Under the pieces are notes generated by a model. It made no database searches. It had not been told where the DNA came from and saw only the letters and a list, made by a program, of their open reading frames with translations. A stretch of DNA of 64,000 nt, from positions 38,736-102,735 of the IMG/VR virus record IMGVR_UViG_3300043772_001004, one strand, 5' to 3'. Each line of letters opens with the position of its first letter. Within the stretch, counting starts at the first letter, position 1. Positions 32,855 to 62,692 of this stretch are shown here, one piece after another. Made by a program: the position numbers and the translations under genes. The stretch is from a virus.

Positions 32855-32942
32855 CTTGTTGGTTTTATGTTATACTTTAATATACAGAATAAACTTCAAA
32901 AATTTAATCTTCTAGAAAAAAATACTGTAATATATAGCTAAG

Positions 32943-53712: not shown

Positions 53713-54043
53713 TAGTTTCTTATCTTATATATTTATATTATATATTTTAGATACTACAAGATATCTACTAAAACACACCAATAAGCTAGTATTACTTAGG
53801 AGATACAGTATAATACTTAAATGATATGTGATATTTATTATTTATGTGTATACATATTGTAAATAAGTGTATGTTATTGTAAGTAACTGATTATTAACCC
53901 AATCACTCTACTTAACTATACTTATACTTAGTATTTATATATTATATTATTATATCTATAATAATATTTATATAGCTAACTTATTACTTAATCAGTATTG
54001 TCTAACCCTTATATATAAATCTTATCTTATGATTTTTAAAACT

Positions 54044-54160
54044 ATGATTCAGATGTTTCAAGGTAACTTACACCTTGTACAGTATGTTAAGTACTCTAAT
54101 GGTAAAGTAGTAAAAAGAGTGCTTGATAAACAAGGACTCCCGATTGCTATTTTCAGCTAA
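54044..54160 (+). CDS. Small hypothetical protein (38 aa)
   Basis: MIQMFQGNLHLVQYVKYSNGKVVKRVLDKQGLPIAIFS after an A-rich leader. Confidence 0.4.
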   Translation: MIQMFQGNLHLVQYVKYSNGKVVKRVLDKQGLPIAIFS

Positions 54161-54255
54161 CCATATTATTCTTAGTACTATGACAACAGCAATTATCTGG
54201 GGATTTGTATTCTTATTATCTTATATTAAATATTGGATAATAAAATAATCCCAAC

Positions 54256-54282
54256 TATCCTGAGTAGGATATAAAACTGCTC
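54256..54282 (+). ncRNA. Small H-type pseudoknot motif, copy 1
   Basis: TATCC-TGAGTA-GGATA-TAAAAC-TGCTC; second copy at 55552. Confidence 0.5.
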
Positions 54283-54289
54283 TTTATAT

Positions 54290-54404
54290 ACTCTCATCCA
54301 AGCAGGAATATTATTCATAGGATGTATGATTCTGTCACCACCTATACATTGTGGGGTAACTGAATAATATTTGTTACAAGGATTGCAACCTTGTGAGAGT
54401 ACCA
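54290..54404 (+). ncRNA. tRNA-like structured RNA 1 (acceptor stem, T-like arm, encoded CCA)
   Basis: ACTCTCA/TGAGAGT-A-CCA; CAAGG-ATTGCAA-CCTTG; internal 11-bp stem AATATTATTCA/TGAATAATATT. Confidence 0.5.
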
Positions 54405-54406
54405 AT

Positions 54407-54521
54407 AATCAGATAGAGAAGAAAGTTCTCACTCAGCAGTATAACTGACTAGTATACACTTATGTCTAGTCAACATAAGAAAAACTGAGAGGTCAGCAGG
54501 TGAAAGTCCTGCTTCTGATTA
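54407..54521 (+). ncRNA. tRNA-like structured RNA 2 (cloverleaf with expanded anticodon loop)
   Basis: AATCAGA/TCTGATT; GAGAA/TTCTC; CTCAG/CTGAG; AGGTC variable loop; AGCAGG-TGAAAGT-CCTGCT. Confidence 0.55.
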
Positions 54522-54547
54522 AGAATTATTCACTTAAAAATATAACT

Positions 54548-54721
54548 ATGTACGAATACTGTATAAATAGTGAAATATTATTCTCTACATATGACTTAAG
54601 AAGACATATTAGAATAATGAAAGCAAGAATGAACCACCATAAAAGTATTGGTGGTAAAGTAGGTTACTTTAAAAACCAAATCAAAATTGCAGAAAAAAAA
54701 CTTCTTAAGAAACTTTATTAA
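54548..54721 (+). CDS. Small basic hypothetical protein
   Basis: Start re-assigned to ATG 54548 because the track GTG lies inside the structured RNA. Confidence 0.5.
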   Translation: MYEYCINSEILFSTYDLRRHIRIMKARMNHHKSIGGKVGYFKNQIKIAEKKLLKKLY

Positions 54722-54742
54722 TCACTTATAAATAAACTTAAA

Positions 54743-55546
54743 ATGAAAATTCATTTAAACTCAAGACAAGGTCTCTTTGAAGTAGAGACATATGGTAGAG
54801 ATACAATTACATTATCTACCAAACATAATGTGTTTCAAGTACCAGTATCTGATTTTAAATCATTTGCTGGCGGTAATTGGAACTTTAATGTATCCAAAGA
54901 AAAAATGGATACATTCTTATCAGTTGTTCAACCTGATAAATATAAAATACAAGTTGAACAAGAGAATCAAATACTAACTCTAGCTGTTAGATTAGGTATG
55001 ATTCAAGATGCAGTTAAAGCACAACAATCAGTTGTTGTAGAAGAATCAGATGATTATCAAGATATACCATTTGAAACTGATGAACCAACCAAAGATGAAT
55101 ATGAAAAATGGTGGAGAGATAAATGTGATGAGCTTAATAGTACAAGAAATAAAATGAGAAGTATTGCACGTGAAGTGTATTCTCAGAATCTTGACTTCAG
55201 TAATTTTCAGAATACCAAGGGTATTAAGTTTATCATACAGCAGGATCATGTTGATGAAAACTCATACAGACTATGTTGGGATCCATATGGATTTGTATCC
55301 AATGGTCACTCAGATATTAGTAGTATTTATCGTGATAATATATGGGGTACAATCAATGGTGGTTGGATTAAAATTATTGGTGATGATGTCATCTTGTATT
55401 TTAAATCTGGTGACTATGGTGTGTATGATAATGCTATTGCTACTGAATGTGCAAAGAAAGTATTTCCAGGAAAGACTATACATTCATTTGCAGGTAGACA
55501 ATGGGATTCTGAATTAGATTCTATGTTTGAATCTTTACCATTTTAA
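54743..55546 (+). CDS. Protein with C-terminal Janus/Ocnus (PHPT1)-like domain
   Basis: GIKFII..GHSDI..NGGWI..VILYFKSGDYG..AIATE..KVFP parallels PHPT1 motifs. Confidence 0.55.
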   Translation: MKIHLNSRQGLFEVETYGRDTITLSTKHNVFQVPVSDFKSFAGGNWNFNVSKEKMDTFLSVVQPDKYKIQVEQENQILTLAVRLGMIQDAVKAQQSVVVEESDDYQDIPFETDEPTKDEYEKWWRDKCDELNSTRNKMRSIAREVYSQNLDFSNFQNTKGIKFIIQQDHVDENSYRLCWDPYGFVSNGHSDISSIYRDNIWGTINGGWIKIIGDDVILYFKSGDYGVYDNAIATECAKKVFPGKTIHSFAGRQWDSELDSMFESLPF

Positions 55547-55551
55547 CTCTA

Positions 55552-55578
55552 TGTCCTGAGTATGACAATAAAGTGCTC
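55552..55578 (+). ncRNA. Small H-type pseudoknot motif, copy 2
   Basis: TGTC-CTGAGTAT-GACA-ATAAAG-TGCTC with a compensatory change versus copy 1. Confidence 0.5.
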
Positions 55579-55630
55579 ATTTTTTCAACTTAAAAATCAA
55601 TTTATTATTAACTCTCAAAAACCAAAACAA

Positions 55631-56542
55631 ATGAGAAATTTATCTACTAAGGGTTTAAGCATGTCCCAAGCACAATCAATATCTAACTTGTGTAATCAAA
55701 ATGCTGTTGAGATTCAACGTGAGTTGGATTCTTACAACAACTGCAGTAAAACTATTACTGTTAATGGTGAAAGCTACTTATTACAAGAAGGAATATCTAT
55801 TCCTGATAATGTAATTGAGAAGCTTAAAATCAAGGGTGATTTACATGCTTGTCAAGCTTTCCTTATGGAAGCTATCAAGGGTAAAGAAGCTTACATGGAT
55901 GATTTAAGGAGAGCTACTCCTGATTTATCTAACTTAGTTAAACCTGAAAGGGTTTATGCTCCTGACTTTGATGAGTTACCAGGTGTAACAGAATCATGGG
56001 GTTGGACACAACTAAGTGATAGTGAGTATTCTGAGTACTTACAAGCTGAAGCAATGGCTTCTCACTTGGGTCAATTTATCCATAGAAATGGTAAGTTATC
56101 TGAGTTGAGAAAGCAACTACCTCATATTGCTAGTATTGAGTGGTTTGAAGTGGAAGAAGGTAAAAAGACTCCGGTCAAAGTTACCAAGCATCACATGTCA
56201 AGCCCATTAATGGTACTACATGAGGAGATTGCTGAACAACATAGAAAGTATGAGCAACGTGTTAATTACTTCAAAGCTAAGGTTAAGAACTTAACTAGTG
56301 ATGAGAATGCACGTATTCAGAAATTGAATGCAGATAAAGCTGCTGAATTCTTAATCATTGAGCAAAAACTCAATGAAGAGTATCAGTTAGCTATGGATGC
56401 ATATCATGGTGAAGTGCTTAGACTTACTATGGAGTTTAATAGTCAACGAGAGTTGGATATTAAAGCTGCTGCAGCATTGAGAATCAATGTTGATCCTAGA
56501 TTTCAAGATGTAATAAACTTGTTTGTTGCTCCTGAGAAATAG
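55631..56542 (+). CDS. Coiled-coil-rich hypothetical protein (~303 aa)
   Basis: Start re-assigned to ATG 55631 after an AAAACCAAAACAA leader; GLSMSQAQSISN, EAMASHLGQFIH motifs. Confidence 0.7.
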   Translation: MRNLSTKGLSMSQAQSISNLCNQNAVEIQRELDSYNNCSKTITVNGESYLLQEGISIPDNVIEKLKIKGDLHACQAFLMEAIKGKEAYMDDLRRATPDLSNLVKPERVYAPDFDELPGVTESWGWTQLSDSEYSEYLQAEAMASHLGQFIHRNGKLSELRKQLPHIASIEWFEVEEGKKTPVKVTKHHMSSPLMVLHEEIAEQHRKYEQRVNYFKAKVKNLTSDENARIQKLNADKAAEFLIIEQKLNEEYQLAMDAYHGEVLRLTMEFNSQRELDIKAAAALRINVDPRFQDVINLFVAPEK

Positions 56543-56548
56543 GAACTT

Positions 56549-56849
56549 ACATACTAGGTGAGCAAGAGATAGGCACAAGCTGATTCTCTTGCTCTTTATG
56601 TTAAGTGACAAGAATTTTTTTATTTGTGATTGATTATCACACAATAATTAATAAAATTAATACAACTAATTTTACCGCTTCTCTTCAAACTTTATAAAAA
56701 CTGAGATAGAACTCCCACATTAGACAGGTTATGCATAATATATGCAATTGGCTAACATTGAGACTTAGTATTTGTATTTGCCTTTGTGTGAAGAGAAGGT
56801 CTTTGAATTTGTTTTTGTATTTGATTTTAGCTATATATTCTTGTCACTT
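56549..56849 (+). ncRNA. Candidate ~300-nt structured ncRNA with GNNUUU repeats
   Basis: Perfect 13-bp (56603-15/56837-49) and 10-bp (56678-87/56789-98) nested long-range stems, plus 5' hairpin GAGCAAGAGA/TCTCTTGCTC. Confidence 0.55.
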
Positions 56850-56891
56850 GATGACTATTTACTTATCTGATTACAATTTAAAATTACACTT

Positions 56892-57230
56892 ATGAATAAA
56901 TCAATCCCCTTTGGTTACCACTATATAGGTAGCCACACAATCATTAAACTTAACATGAATCTCACACCTGCAGATGCAGATGAAATTAGAAATCTATTTG
57001 GTTTTTCTGTTTCACATGTAGGAAGATATGGCTCTATGCTATGTAGAATAGAAGCAGTAGTTCCTTGGAATGGTATGGGAAATGAAAACTTTAGAAACTG
57101 GTTTAATAAACTTGAGATTTATAAGATCAATGCTAAGATGGAAAAACTAGCAAACAAAAAAGTAGAAGCATTAGACAGAGCACTTAATGCTGAGAATTTA
57201 TTAATTAATTTGAATGATTTACCCTTTTAA
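56892..57230 (+). CDS. Hypothetical protein (C-terminal DLPF)
   Basis: ORF track. Confidence 0.6.
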   Translation: MNKSIPFGYHYIGSHTIIKLNMNLTPADADEIRNLFGFSVSHVGRYGSMLCRIEAVVPWNGMGNENFRNWFNKLEIYKINAKMEKLANKKVEALDRALNAENLLINLNDLPF

Positions 57231-57240
57231 TAAAATAATT

Positions 57241-57378
57241 ATGAAAACAATTGGAATAGTACTAGCATGGTTTGTATTTATTGGAGTTCTAGCATCTTTT
57301 GTTAGCTGCAGTAGTACAGTACACTGTGATGCTTATGGTCAAACAGAACAAGTACAAAATAAAACTGTAAGCAAATGA
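57241..57378 (+). CDS. Small lipoprotein (45 aa, CDAY motif)
   Basis: Not in track. MKTIGIVLAWFVFIGVLASFVSCSSTVHCDAYGQTEQVQNKTVSK; ATGA overlap with next gene. Confidence 0.65.
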   Translation: MKTIGIVLAWFVFIGVLASFVSCSSTVHCDAYGQTEQVQNKTVSK

Positions 57379-57620
57379 TTTATAGAAAGTTAACAAAACT
57401 AAAAAAGCAAAAGAGGGATATAGAGTCCCTCATTAATGCTGCATATCAGTCTAAGGCTGACCCTGAAGTGGTTATACTTAGAGTAGGTGACTTACAATGG
57501 GACCTTAGTATAGTAGAAAAAGAAATAGAGGAAGAAAAAATGATGCTTCCTTTTAAATTAACTCTTGCTGCATTTGTAGTAGGTAGTATAGGTTTATTAA
57601 TTTATGGATTAACACTTTAA
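57375..57620 (+). CDS. Coiled-coil protein with C-terminal TM helix
   Basis: ORF track. Confidence 0.6.
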   Translation: MIYRKLTKLKKQKRDIESLINAAYQSKADPEVVILRVGDLQWDLSIVEKEIEEEKMMLPFKLTLAAFVVGSIGLLIYGLTL

Positions 57621-57622
57621 TT

Positions 57623-57817
57623 ATGGCGAATTTAATTTTTGTATGGTATCTTCTTACAGGAACTGTACAGTATCAACAGACAATGGATGGACACAAGCAA
57701 TATGCTTTGTTCTTTGAAGATGGAAAGGTTATAGACTATGCATATAAGGGTGAAATCTTAGAATACATAGAGACCGGAACATTTGAGTATAATGAAGATT
57801 TAGAACTTAGTAAATAA
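57623..57817 (+). CDS. Small hypothetical protein
   Basis: ORF track. Confidence 0.6.
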   Translation: MANLIFVWYLLTGTVQYQQTMDGHKQYALFFEDGKVIDYAYKGEILEYIETGTFEYNEDLELSK

Positions 57818-57824
57818 TCTTTTT

Positions 57825-57898
57825 GGTCCTGTAGCTCAGCTGGATAGAGCAATTGCCTTCTAAGCAATAGGTCCTTGGTTCGAATCCAAGCAGGATCA
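57825..57898 (+). tRNA. tRNA-Arg (anticodon TCT), CCA not encoded
   Basis: GGTCCTG/CAGGATC acceptor; GCTC/GAGC D-stem; ATTGC-CTTCTAA-GCAAT; CTTGG-TTCGAAT-CCAAG. Confidence 0.95.
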
Positions 57899-57918
57899 CT
57901 AACTTTTAAATATATTAT

Positions 57919-58149
57919 ATGAGAAATACAGACTATAAACTTATAACATCTGTCATGGGATTTAATTTAAAGGTCACAGTTAAAGATGAGAATAACCAAA
58001 TGGTTAAAACAGGTATTAAACACACTATTCAACGTGCAGAAGGTAGTATATCTGCATTTAAAAATAGAATAGGTGATAAGAAATGGTTTACTCACTTTAA
58101 TGATGGTCTTTACAACAAAATTCTAGACTACAGAAAAAACAATGATTAA
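57919..58149 (+). CDS. Hypothetical protein
   Basis: ORF track. Confidence 0.6.
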   Translation: MRNTDYKLITSVMGFNLKVTVKDENNQMVKTGIKHTIQRAEGSISAFKNRIGDKKWFTHFNDGLYNKILDYRKNND

Positions 58150-58198
58150 GATTTTTAAGATAGTGTATTCTGTGAATATACTTTTCCAATCCAAATAG

Positions 58199-58226
58199 CA
58201 AGGGGTAGCAATACCCCTTGTTTATT
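58199..58226 (+). terminator. Intrinsic terminator-like hairpin
   Basis: CAAGGGGTA-GCAA-TACCCCTTG plus T-rich tail. Confidence 0.6.
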
Positions 58227-58227
58227 G

Positions 58228-58250
58228 TTAGCTATATATTACAGTATTTT
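58228..58250 (+). repeat. 23-bp intergenic element identical to 32919-32941 (minus strand)
   Basis: TTAGCTATATATTACAGTATTTT at both sites. Confidence 0.8.
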
Positions 58251-58307
58251 ATTTTGTACAAGCAATTCTACTTGATTTTATCACGTATTTTTACTACAGA
58301 ATAAATA

Positions 58308-58580
58308 ATGTTATATCAATTACCTAACGGAAAAGTTGTTCACCTGAGCATTGAAGAATACTTAAGTCTTACAGATTTAGATATACAGTTCTTAATGTCT
58401 ATAGATTATGGTGAACATATCTTAGACCCTTTTACCGGTTCTGCTGTTGAGAAAAACACCAGAGAAAAATATATTGATACAGACTTTCTTCCACTAGAAG
58501 ATTATGACCTTAATGATATACCATCAGATGATTTACCATTTGATGATATCATTGACTTAGAGGATCCACTGGATAACTAG
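58308..58580 (+). CDS. Acidic hypothetical protein
   Basis: MLYQLPNGKVVHLSIEEYL; Asp-rich C-terminus. Confidence 0.7.
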   Translation: MLYQLPNGKVVHLSIEEYLSLTDLDIQFLMSIDYGEHILDPFTGSAVEKNTREKYIDTDFLPLEDYDLNDIPSDDLPFDDIIDLEDPLDN

Positions 58581-58694
58581 TATTGCTAATCGCGATATGC
58601 AATACTAAACACTTATCACTTAGCTTGAGTAACTAATGGTATAGTAAAATCTACACTCAAAAATCTATTTATTAATTTTTTAAAAACAAAAAAG

Positions 58695-59177
58695 ATGAAC
58701 TCTAAAGTAATCGTAACAGCTGACCCTACAACTAATGCAGTAATTAATGTATCACAAAATAAACCTGAATGGGGTTATATCCGTGTACAACAAGTAAGAA
58801 CAATGATTGATGATAATGGTTTCTTGAAAAGAAAAACAGTATCTGCAATTGTTCCTTCTTTACTAGTAGATTTACAAGCATCAGGTTTCTTTGCTGGTCA
58901 GCAATTAGATGGTAAAATTGTGATTGAAGAATCACTTGAGCCATTCAATGATAAAACACCAGAGCGTGATTTAAAAATTGCTGGTGAAACAGGTATTGTA
59001 TGTACATTAGCAGGACAACCAATCTATAGAAGAACTAAATTTTCTTTTGATGGTAATATTTCTGATACTTTAATCAAACATGATAATGTTGAAGAGTTGC
59101 GTGCTGCTTATGCTATTAGTTCTAAACCAAATACTGAAGCATTGAAGAATGCTGCAAGCCAGGATTTTAATCTATAA
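58695..59177 (+). CDS. Putative ssDNA-binding/OB-fold-like protein
   Basis: Beta-rich with C-terminal DFNL tail; function inferred only. Confidence 0.4.
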   Translation: MNSKVIVTADPTTNAVINVSQNKPEWGYIRVQQVRTMIDDNGFLKRKTVSAIVPSLLVDLQASGFFAGQQLDGKIVIEESLEPFNDKTPERDLKIAGETGIVCTLAGQPIYRRTKFSFDGNISDTLIKHDNVEELRAAYAISSKPNTEALKNAASQDFNL

Positions 59178-60610: not shown

Positions 60611-61705
60611 ATGAACAGAGAAGAAATACAAGATGAAGCTTTAAAAGCTAGTGAGGGTAAACAAAGATGCACAATTGTACTTGGTACAGGTGTAGGTAAG
60701 ACTCTTGTTGGCTTAAAGCATATGGAGAAACATTATTCTCCATTACAAAGTATTCTGATTGTTGCTCCCAAACTGTCTATCATAAGCTCATGGAGATATG
60801 AGGCTGAGAAATTTGGATTAAGCAAAGTATTGGAAAATGCTAAGTTTACTACTTATCTTAGTTTAAACAAACATAATCCTGGTGAATATGATGCAGTTTA
60901 CTTTGATGAAGTTCACAGTTTATTAGATAGTCACAGATCTTTTCTTAATAATTATGCAGGTAGAGTACTGGGTTTAACCGGTACTCCACCTAAGCATAAA
61001 ACATCTGAGAAAGGTAGATTAGTATCTGAATATTGTCCAGTTGTCTATACTTTTAAGGCAGATGATGCAATAGAATCAGGTATTATTAATGATTATCAAA
61101 TAATTGTGCATGAGATTAATCTTGATACTGCAAAGAACTATAAAGTCTCAACAAAGAATGGTGGTTTTCTTACATCTGAGTTGCAAAACTATGGTTATTG
61201 GGGTACAAGGATTGATACAGCATCAGGGCAACCTCATATACTTAGAGTAATGAGAATGAAAGCTATGATGGAGTATCCAAGCAAAGAAAGATATGCAAAA
61301 GCTTTGTTAAACAGTATAACAAGCAAGTGTATTGTATTTGCTAATACTCAAGAACAAGCTGATAGAATGTGTACACATAGCTATCATAGTAATAATCAAG
61401 ATTCTGAAGAGAATCTGCTTGATTTTAAGAATGGTAAGATAAATAAACTTTCATGTGTGTTGCAATTAAATGAAGGTGTAAACATACCAGGTTTAAAACA
61501 AGGTATTATTATGCATGCATATGGTAATGAGCGTAAGGCTAGTCAAAGAATAGGAAGACTTTTGCGTTTAAATCCAGATGACAAAGCTATTGTGCACATA
61601 CTATGCTATGTAAATACAGTTGATGAGAAATGGGTTAAAGATGCTTTAGAAGACTTTGACCAGAGTAAAATAGTGTGGAGAAGTTATAGCCTACAACATA
61701 CATAA
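60611..61705 (+). CDS. SF2 (DExH) helicase
   Basis: GTGVGKT, DEVH, GLTGTP, LNEGVNIP, QRIGRLLR. Confidence 0.9.
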   Translation: MNREEIQDEALKASEGKQRCTIVLGTGVGKTLVGLKHMEKHYSPLQSILIVAPKLSIISSWRYEAEKFGLSKVLENAKFTTYLSLNKHNPGEYDAVYFDEVHSLLDSHRSFLNNYAGRVLGLTGTPPKHKTSEKGRLVSEYCPVVYTFKADDAIESGIINDYQIIVHEINLDTAKNYKVSTKNGGFLTSELQNYGYWGTRIDTASGQPHILRVMRMKAMMEYPSKERYAKALLNSITSKCIVFANTQEQADRMCTHSYHSNNQDSEENLLDFKNGKINKLSCVLQLNEGVNIPGLKQGIIMHAYGNERKASQRIGRLLRLNPDDKAIVHILCYVNTVDEKWVKDALEDFDQSKIVWRSYSLQHT

Positions 61706-62236: not shown

Positions 62237-62692
62237 ATGGTAGAAGATTTATATGAACTTAACAAAGTTGTAAATCAAGATATAGTTGAGATTATTGATA
62301 AATATCAACTAAATACAAAAAGTAGAAAAAGAGAAAAAGCTTACATGAGATACTATCTCTATGATGTTTTAAAAAAGAGGAGATTTCTTACACATGCAAT
62401 GATTGGTATGTTTTTTAACCGTGATCATTCATCAGTAACTCTTGGTCTTCAAGAACATGAGTATTGGTGGAAGCATAAAGATATTGACTATTTAAAAGCT
62501 ATTCAACCTATAGTAGATATTATTGATATGAGAAAAACTGATTTGGGTTTATTTGGTATTAAAACAAACTACATTGATGTTGAAGAATCTCAGATAGTAA
62601 TCACTGGTAACTTTAATCTTAATCTACTTGACAAACTTCCTGAAAAAATGACCAAAGAAGAATTATTGAATGTCTTTAAAATAATAAACTAA
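62237..62692 (+). CDS. DnaA domain IV-like HTH protein
   Basis: KSRKRE..R..IGMFFNRDHSSV resembles DnaA RDHTTV. Confidence 0.65.
   Translation: MVEDLYELNKVVNQDIVEIIDKYQLNTKSRKREKAYMRYYLYDVLKKRRFLTHAMIGMFFNRDHSSVTLGLQEHEYWWKHKDIDYLKAIQPIVDIIDMRKTDLGLFGIKTNYIDVEESQIVITGNFNLNLLDKLPEKMTKEELLNVFKIIN

Follow-up and report, generated by a model that had tools for sequence, protein, structure and literature searches.

The window is a 64,000-nucleotide stretch of viral DNA, the right-hand 64 kb of a 102.7-kb IMG/VR virus record (IMGVR_UViG_3300043772_001004; estimated 87% complete). Three giant open reading frames, portal, terminase, and major head protein genes lie on its minus strand, and a block of small plus-strand genes starts at about 52.6 kb. 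The terminase is 23-25% identical to those of Crassvirales and Flavobacterium phages, indicating a distant crAss-like phage, and the phage was found in lake-water samples. Here, we report a structured RNA of about 300 nt in the plus-strand block, between a 303-amino-acid (aa) gene (here called c1) and a 112-aa gene. tRNA-Arg lies at 57825-57899, with tRNA-shaped RNAs also nearby. A superfamily-2 helicase (ResIII plus Helicase_C; 60611-61705) and a small protein with a weak DnaA C-terminal HTH match (62237-62692; E 7e-4, below the cut-off) lie 4-6 kb downstream and are probably part of the replication module.

An earlier note, made from the sequence alone, had described long-range stems and periodic hexamer tracts in this gap, and this observation was confirmed. 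The 13-bp stem is 56603-56615 with 56837-56849, and the 10-bp stem is 56678-56687 with 56789-56798; ACTGAG (56700-56705) pairs with CTTAGT (56764-56769) through one G-U, and TGCATA/TATGCA lies at 56732-56737 and 56741-56746. The tracts are GTATTT GTATTT GCCTTT (56768-56785) and GTCTTT GAATTT GTTTTT GTATTT GATTTT (56799-56828). Three corrections apply: the outer stem is 17 bp (56599-56615 with 56837-56853), a covarying hairpin directly after the c1 stop codon belongs to the conserved block (so that the element spans about 56560-56855), and the unit is better written NNUUUG. The features are as follows.

55631-56542 (+), c1, a 303-aa predicted helical protein of unknown family, upstream of the RNA
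56560-56594 (+), P0, a 10-bp hairpin with an inner 3-bp helix (56572-56574 with 56579-56581) and a conserved loop (GCACAAGCUGA), followed by only UCUUUAU
56599-56615 (+), P1 5' arm of the 17-bp closing stem
56625-56661 (+), P2 (56625-56641) and P3 (56647-56661), variable hairpins whose sequence and length differ between relatives
56678-56686 (+), P4 5' arm (pyrimidine strand CUUCUCUUC), pairing with 56790-56798
56700-56714 (+), near-invariant core ACUGAGAUAGAACUC (mean entropy, 0.61 bits), in which ACUGAG may pair with CUUAGU at 56764-56769 (P5, tentative)
56720-56755 (+), P6 (56720-56723 with 56752-56755) and P6b (56725-56727 with 56748-56750), enclosing the apical hairpin P7 (56732-56746)
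56769-56786 (+), tract 1, three phased NNUUUG units ending at 56774, 56780, and 56786
56790-56798 (+), P4 3' arm (purine strand GAAGAGAAG)
56799-56829 (+), tract 2, near-invariant GGUCUUUG followed by four more phased NNUUUG units (ends at 56805, 56811, 56817, 56823, and 56829 for the five)
56831-56836 (+), CUAUAU box (C 100%, U 100%, A 99%, and U 99% for the first four letters)
56837-56855 (+), P1 3' arm (56837-56853), followed by a near-invariant AC (56854-56855)
56892-57230 (+), next gene (112 aa), not part of the unit

Structure, strand, and conservation of the RNA

The plus strand folded to −61.8 kcal/mol (RNAfold; z, −5.46; 0 of 200 dinucleotide shuffles as good). The minus strand folded nearly as well (z, −5.27), so the strand was decided from base-pair counts and not from energy. 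Five full homologous loci found through c1 showed a nearly invariant core with compensatory changes in the outer stem. Two invariant words from the core (16 and 17 nt) then retrieved dozens of viral contigs, and a c1 profile fetched 160 further viral loci and 80 metagenome loci. An nhmmer profile of the element found it in 284 of the first 325 loci collected, the remainder being chance word matches, truncated pieces, and phage phi14:2. Helices defined in the window were scored on 86 nonredundant sequences (less than 88% identical to each other). In these, 90.8% of cells pair, against 39-52% when the 3' partners are slid by 1-3 columns, and 48 of 52 pairs change on both sides. The covariation score is 0.636, against 0.12-0.17 slid and 0.27 shuffled (0 of 500 shuffles reach it).

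All 10 outer and all 3 inner pairs of P0, 17 of 17 pairs of P1 (90.5% paired), and 9 of 9 pairs of P4 (94-99.7% paired) change on both sides. P4 is invariant among close relatives; in distant relatives, it is rebuilt with other letters but stays pyrimidine-rich on the 5' strand and purine-rich on the 3' strand. P6 and P6b are 95-98% paired, with 6 of 7 pairs covarying, whereas P5 is 87% paired with little covariation. P2 and P3 are kept as hairpins with unrelated sequences and were left out of the column-by-column scoring because MAFFT misaligns them. P7 is variable in sequence and carries a conserved insert of about 40 nt (...AUAGAGAAAG...CUUUACCA...) in a subset of relatives (alignment columns about 335-390; for example, loci L022, L048, L086, and L299 of our collection), and a minority replace the ACUGAGAUAGAACUC core with a different, U-rich hairpin; these are module swaps within one RNA family. 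RNAalifold independently recovered P0, P1, P4, and P6 and left both tracts unpaired. Overall, P1 closes a multibranch domain that holds the two variable hairpins and one long arm made of P4, the near-invariant core, P6, and P7, with three of the phased units on the 3' side of the internal loop of the long arm and five between P4 and P1. Non-Watson-Crick cells are G-U 115 times and A-C 20 times on the plus strand (P4, 12:0; P1, 32:6), so the folded molecule is the plus strand, the sense of the flanking genes. Indels of 1 nt and other nontriplet lengths inside the conserved core exclude a protein reading, and the 54-aa open reading frame at 56731-56895 is not conserved.

The hexamer phase is conserved family-wide. 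U at unit position 5 is 97-100%, and G at position 6 is 77-100% in seven of the eight units but falls to G 57%/A 41% in the last. GUCUUUG/U at the start of tract 2 is exact in 67 of 86 relatives (88-100% per letter). The NN positions have a mean entropy of 1.07 bits, below that of the stem columns (1.25 bits), and two NN pairs (CC and UC, 77-100% conserved) are almost invariant. On the plus strand of the window, every phased-UUUG match lies in this element.

No described RNA family was matched. A cmscan of 54000-59000 against Rfam 15 (E ≤ 10) returned only tRNA-Arg (57825-57898) plus chance-level rows elsewhere, with nothing within 56549-56860 and no hit to any 6S model; the architecture is multibranched, unlike the 6S rod with a central bubble. 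Literature searches for the core sequence found nothing relevant. Among 185,579 bacterial species genomes, the core had one hit, a 3.7-kb contig (JBAXBM010000227.1) binned into a Candidatus Omnitrophota MAG, most likely a misbinned phage contig. No cultivable carrier was present in the GenBank phage collection (as of August 2025).

Linkage to the upstream gene

Every element-bearing viral locus with at least 1,300 nt of upstream sequence has c1 upstream (254 of 254), including 100 of 100 loci fetched by DNA words and thus not selected through c1. P0 starts within about 6 nt (median) of the c1 stop codon; the gap is under 50 nt in 231 loci, and 50-590 nt separate c1 from the RNA in 23. Conversely, the element follows c1 in 151 of 151 c1-fetched viral loci and in 63 of 63 metagenome loci with enough downstream sequence, from freshwater, marine, and other environmental metagenomes (c1 43-100% identical to the window's protein). 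The gene after the element differs between relatives (neighbor clusters c16, c0, c23, c7, and others). The element is single copy in this genome and in three others of 126-166 kb. Carriers include records of 126 and 166 kb that are estimated complete and viral contigs of 320-373 kb (loci L250-L252, L256, L280, and L304; these may be jumbo phages or chimeras), so the pair is not confined to 100-kb crAss-like genomes.

One much more distant member was reached, PQ006092.1 (rodent feces, 98.6 kb), the nearest deposited genome. Its c1 homologue is 25% identical over the N-terminal half and is followed by a P0 hairpin, an 18-bp closing stem, a 12-bp pyrimidine/purine helix, and phased UUG units (z, −4.2). 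The element profile aligned weakly (E, 0.17) to exactly the P4-tract 2 segment. A deposited 58-aa hypothetical protein CDS (88046-88222) lies entirely inside this RNA homologue and is probably a misannotation. Single-protein scans for more distant c1 relatives with P0202 and P0232 found nothing.

c1 has 2,421 relatives (463 clusters at 50% identity) but no Pfam or PHROG family. Its AF2 model (pLDDT, 81) is helical with one beta hairpin and a 93-residue helix (190-282), and comparisons with PDB and BFVD (Foldseek) and with the ESM Atlas gave no informative match. A two-copy model gave a symmetric interface through residues 32-80 and 130-203 (ipSAE, 0.47; best control, 0.00), with at least 97% of contacts agreeing between runs and partner pLDDT of at least 86. 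That mark was reached by 20 of 30 proteins solved as pairs of one chain and by 1 of 23 solved as single chains, although these counts hold only roughly because our own alignment was used. This supports dimerization but does not prove it.

Contigs from four lake-water metatranscriptome runs, each from a different study, bridge c1, the element, and the next gene (for example, 54581-58638), which places the sequence in RNA libraries but cannot give RNA ends, strand, or level, nor exclude DNA carry-over. Parts of the minus-strand block had no cover in the four runs, from which no conclusion is drawn. Contigs from all four runs begin within 54581-54727, just upstream of the 267-aa gene at 54743, a weak hint of a transcript start.

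Interpretation and comparison with described systems

The earlier note had inferred a noncoding RNA presenting repeated sites for an oligomeric protein, plausibly c1, as an undescribed protein-RNA pair, and this interpretation is supported only in part. The structured, noncoding, uncatalogued nature of the RNA, its sense strand, and its linkage to c1 are established by the analysis, and the outcomes that the note had set as refuting it (homologues lacking the structure, or no covariation) did not occur. What remains inference is that a discrete RNA is made, that c1 binds it, that the hexamers are the binding sites, and any function. In our preferred reading, held about as likely as not, the RNA would be made as the 3' extension of the c1 message, P0 and P1 would protect or delimit it, and the eight phased units would form a multivalent single-strand platform on which copies of a protein line up every six bases. 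The most likely partner would be c1 itself, a predicted symmetric dimer rich in conserved basic and aromatic residues, giving a phage ribonucleoprotein made early in infection. This view rests on linkage that survives divergence to 25% identity while other neighbors change, on the conserved, unpaired, phased array, and on the predicted self-association of c1. Against it, c1 has no recognizable RNA-binding domain, a dimer does not explain eight sites, and the linkage could equally reflect a cis role for c1 expression.

The main rival, which we consider possible but less likely, is that the RNA is a sponge or recruiter for host cold-shock-domain (CSD) proteins (Csp), titrating or concentrating abundant RNA chaperones during infection, with c1 linked for another reason. 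By sequence alone, the tracts fit such a protein at least as well as they fit c1. The near-invariant GUCUUUG (56799-56805, unpaired in the consensus fold) equals the Bacillus subtilis CspB consensus 5'-GTCTTTG/T-3', which prefers C at position 3 and T at positions 2, 4, and 6 (PMC1904285). GUCUUUA RNA was crystallized on CspB, and a CSD has six to seven base subsites, matching the 6-nt phase (PMC7825780). The array thus reads as eight overlapping near-consensus Csp sites (G-NN-UUU-G), the family consensus has C at unit position 3 in 5 of 8 units, and most of these phages come from cold lake water. No CSD gene was found in the phage record, which is 87% complete, whereas Bacteroides, searched as a control, carries CSD genes. 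However, the match was noticed after other binders had been considered and discarded, so multiple testing applies; CSDs have low sequence selectivity (PMC7825780), the distant gut member has GUUCUUG, and the absolute linkage to c1 is left unexplained. No natural multisite Csp sponge RNA is known to us.

A purely cis-acting element without a dedicated protein partner is unlikely. It could be a 3' stabilizer or processing site for the c1 message (P1 as an RNase III site, P0 as an exonuclease block or weak terminator) or a leader controlling the next gene. The element sits between two genes of one direction, RNA-library contigs run through it, the next start codon lies about 40 nt after P1, and long intergenic stems are classic RNase III sites in phage T7 early mRNA. 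Yet 300 nt with near-invariant single strands and a 15-nt invariant core is far more than such a site needs, and the downstream gene varies. P0 does not fit an intrinsic terminator, which has a G+C-rich stem, a 3-8-nt loop, and a run of U (here, a 15-nt loop with its own inner helix, tail UCUUUAU, not called by a terminator scan). Pairing of the tracts with the A-rich c1 leader, where the complement CAAAAACCAAAACAAA lies just before the c1 ATG, is not conserved in relatives. A DNA-level element (a replication origin or single-strand priming site with iteron-like repeats and inverted repeats, served by c1 as initiator) is the least likely of the readings weighed. In most relatives, the start of tract 2 repeats about 20 nt of tract 1 (GACTTAGTATTTGTATTTG), the region is AT-rich, the cumulative GC skew has its minimum about 3 kb upstream, the helicase and DnaA-HTH-like genes lie downstream, and the virion RNA polymerase of the crAss-like phage phi14:2 transcribed denatured (single-stranded) phage DNA in vitro (bioRxiv 10.1101/2020.03.07.982082). 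However, an iteron-type origin has several direct repeats of about 17-22 bp conserved as duplex sites, whereas the 20-nt repeat is absent from this window and from many relatives, the skew minimum coincides with the switch of gene orientation, hairpins are kept with unrelated sequences, and the G-U excess fits a single-stranded plus-strand molecule and not duplex sites, although plus-strand single-stranded DNA is not formally excluded.

VIPR systems (bioRxiv 10.64898/2026.04.26.720920) are also phage encoded, with one protein gene and an adjacent noncoding RNA of short phased units in which conserved letters alternate with less conserved ones. The Vipr protein is a RAMP with an RRM core, G-loop, and thumb, and the vrRNA co-purifies with it and guides DNA binding. 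The present pair fails each defining VIPR feature that could be examined: c1 is predicted to be helical and lacks an RRM, G-loop, or thumb (no RAMP or Cas hit in PDB at E ≤ 0.001), the unit is 6 nt (NNUUUG) and not 5 nt (YNNGG, or GGY/NN), the units are split 3 + 5 by helix P4 inside a covarying fold of about 300 nt in place of 9-16 contiguous units plus a 3' tail in about 100 nt, and the NN positions are not hypervariable (which also argues against a programmable guide). There is also one RNA per genome. A RAMP-independent analogue, in which c1 dimers polymerize along the eight units and the exposed dinucleotides, together with the near-invariant core, read a fixed nucleic acid target in the host or a competing element as a hard-wired cousin of the noncontiguous VIPR code, is not excluded but is improbable.

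TRAP, 6S RNA, GOLLD/ROOL, and the phi14:2 early RNAs share single traits only with this pair. TRAP on its (G/U)AG array in the Bacillus trp leader likewise offers a single-stranded array that could wrap or line up subunits of one protein; it is an 11-mer beta-sandwich ring reading 11 triplets spaced by 2-3 nt in an mRNA leader, whereas here no TRAP domain was found in c1 or its neighbors, the repeats are UUUG, and the array sits inside a large stable fold behind the gene. GOLLD, ROOL, and the stable RNAs of the T4/T5 tRNA regions are large structured phage or prophage RNAs of unknown function, but there is no Rfam match to any of them, and none is known to have phased hexamer tracts or an obligatory partner gene. 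The abundant early long noncoding RNAs of phi14:2 (bioRxiv 10.1101/2020.03.07.982082) are also long intergenic transcripts in the early, rightward region of a crAss-like phage, with no sequence similarity to the element, and the gene before that region (g004) is not a c1 homologue (hhalign probability, 0.3%). The second of those two phi14:2 regions (NC_021806; 4030-4500 of our extracted locus) begins GGGGTCGAC and ends with a T-arm and acceptor-like GGGGGTTCGAATCCCCCCGACTCCAC, which looks, from sequence alone, like the two ends of a tmRNA.

Neither the RNA nor the protein belongs to any described family. Conserved as a pair from 100% down to 25% protein identity, once per genome, in hundreds of uncultured phages from lakes, seas, sediments, and animal guts, the RNA is almost certainly doing something important early in infection. 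If the partner is c1, this would be a new viral ribonucleoprotein; if it is the host cold-shock protein, it would be, to our knowledge, the first natural RNA sponge for that chaperone family. Either would open a new piece of RNA biology in crAss-like and related Bacteroidota phages. The finding also corrects annotations, because at least one deposited genome (PQ006092.1) has a protein gene called on top of the RNA.

The CUAUAU box was also considered as a promoter. In this genome, it is part of TTAGCTATATA, which occurs 4 times, but the equivalent 11-mers occur once each in the three other genomes of 126-166 kb, and a promoter was rejected as a general explanation; sigma-70 and terminator scans were uninformative. 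TAGCTATATA occurs exactly 4 times in the 102.7-kb genome (reversed control, 0 times). An identical 23-bp element (TTAGCTATATATTACAGTATTTT) lies after the portal gene stop, ahead of the scaffold/head genes (32919-32941, minus strand), and after a terminator ahead of the gene at 58308 (58228-58250, plus strand). Its first 11-13 nt recur inside the 3' part of the RNA (56826-56838, plus strand) and once more at 53969-53979 (minus strand), and it may be a promoter or a shared protein site.
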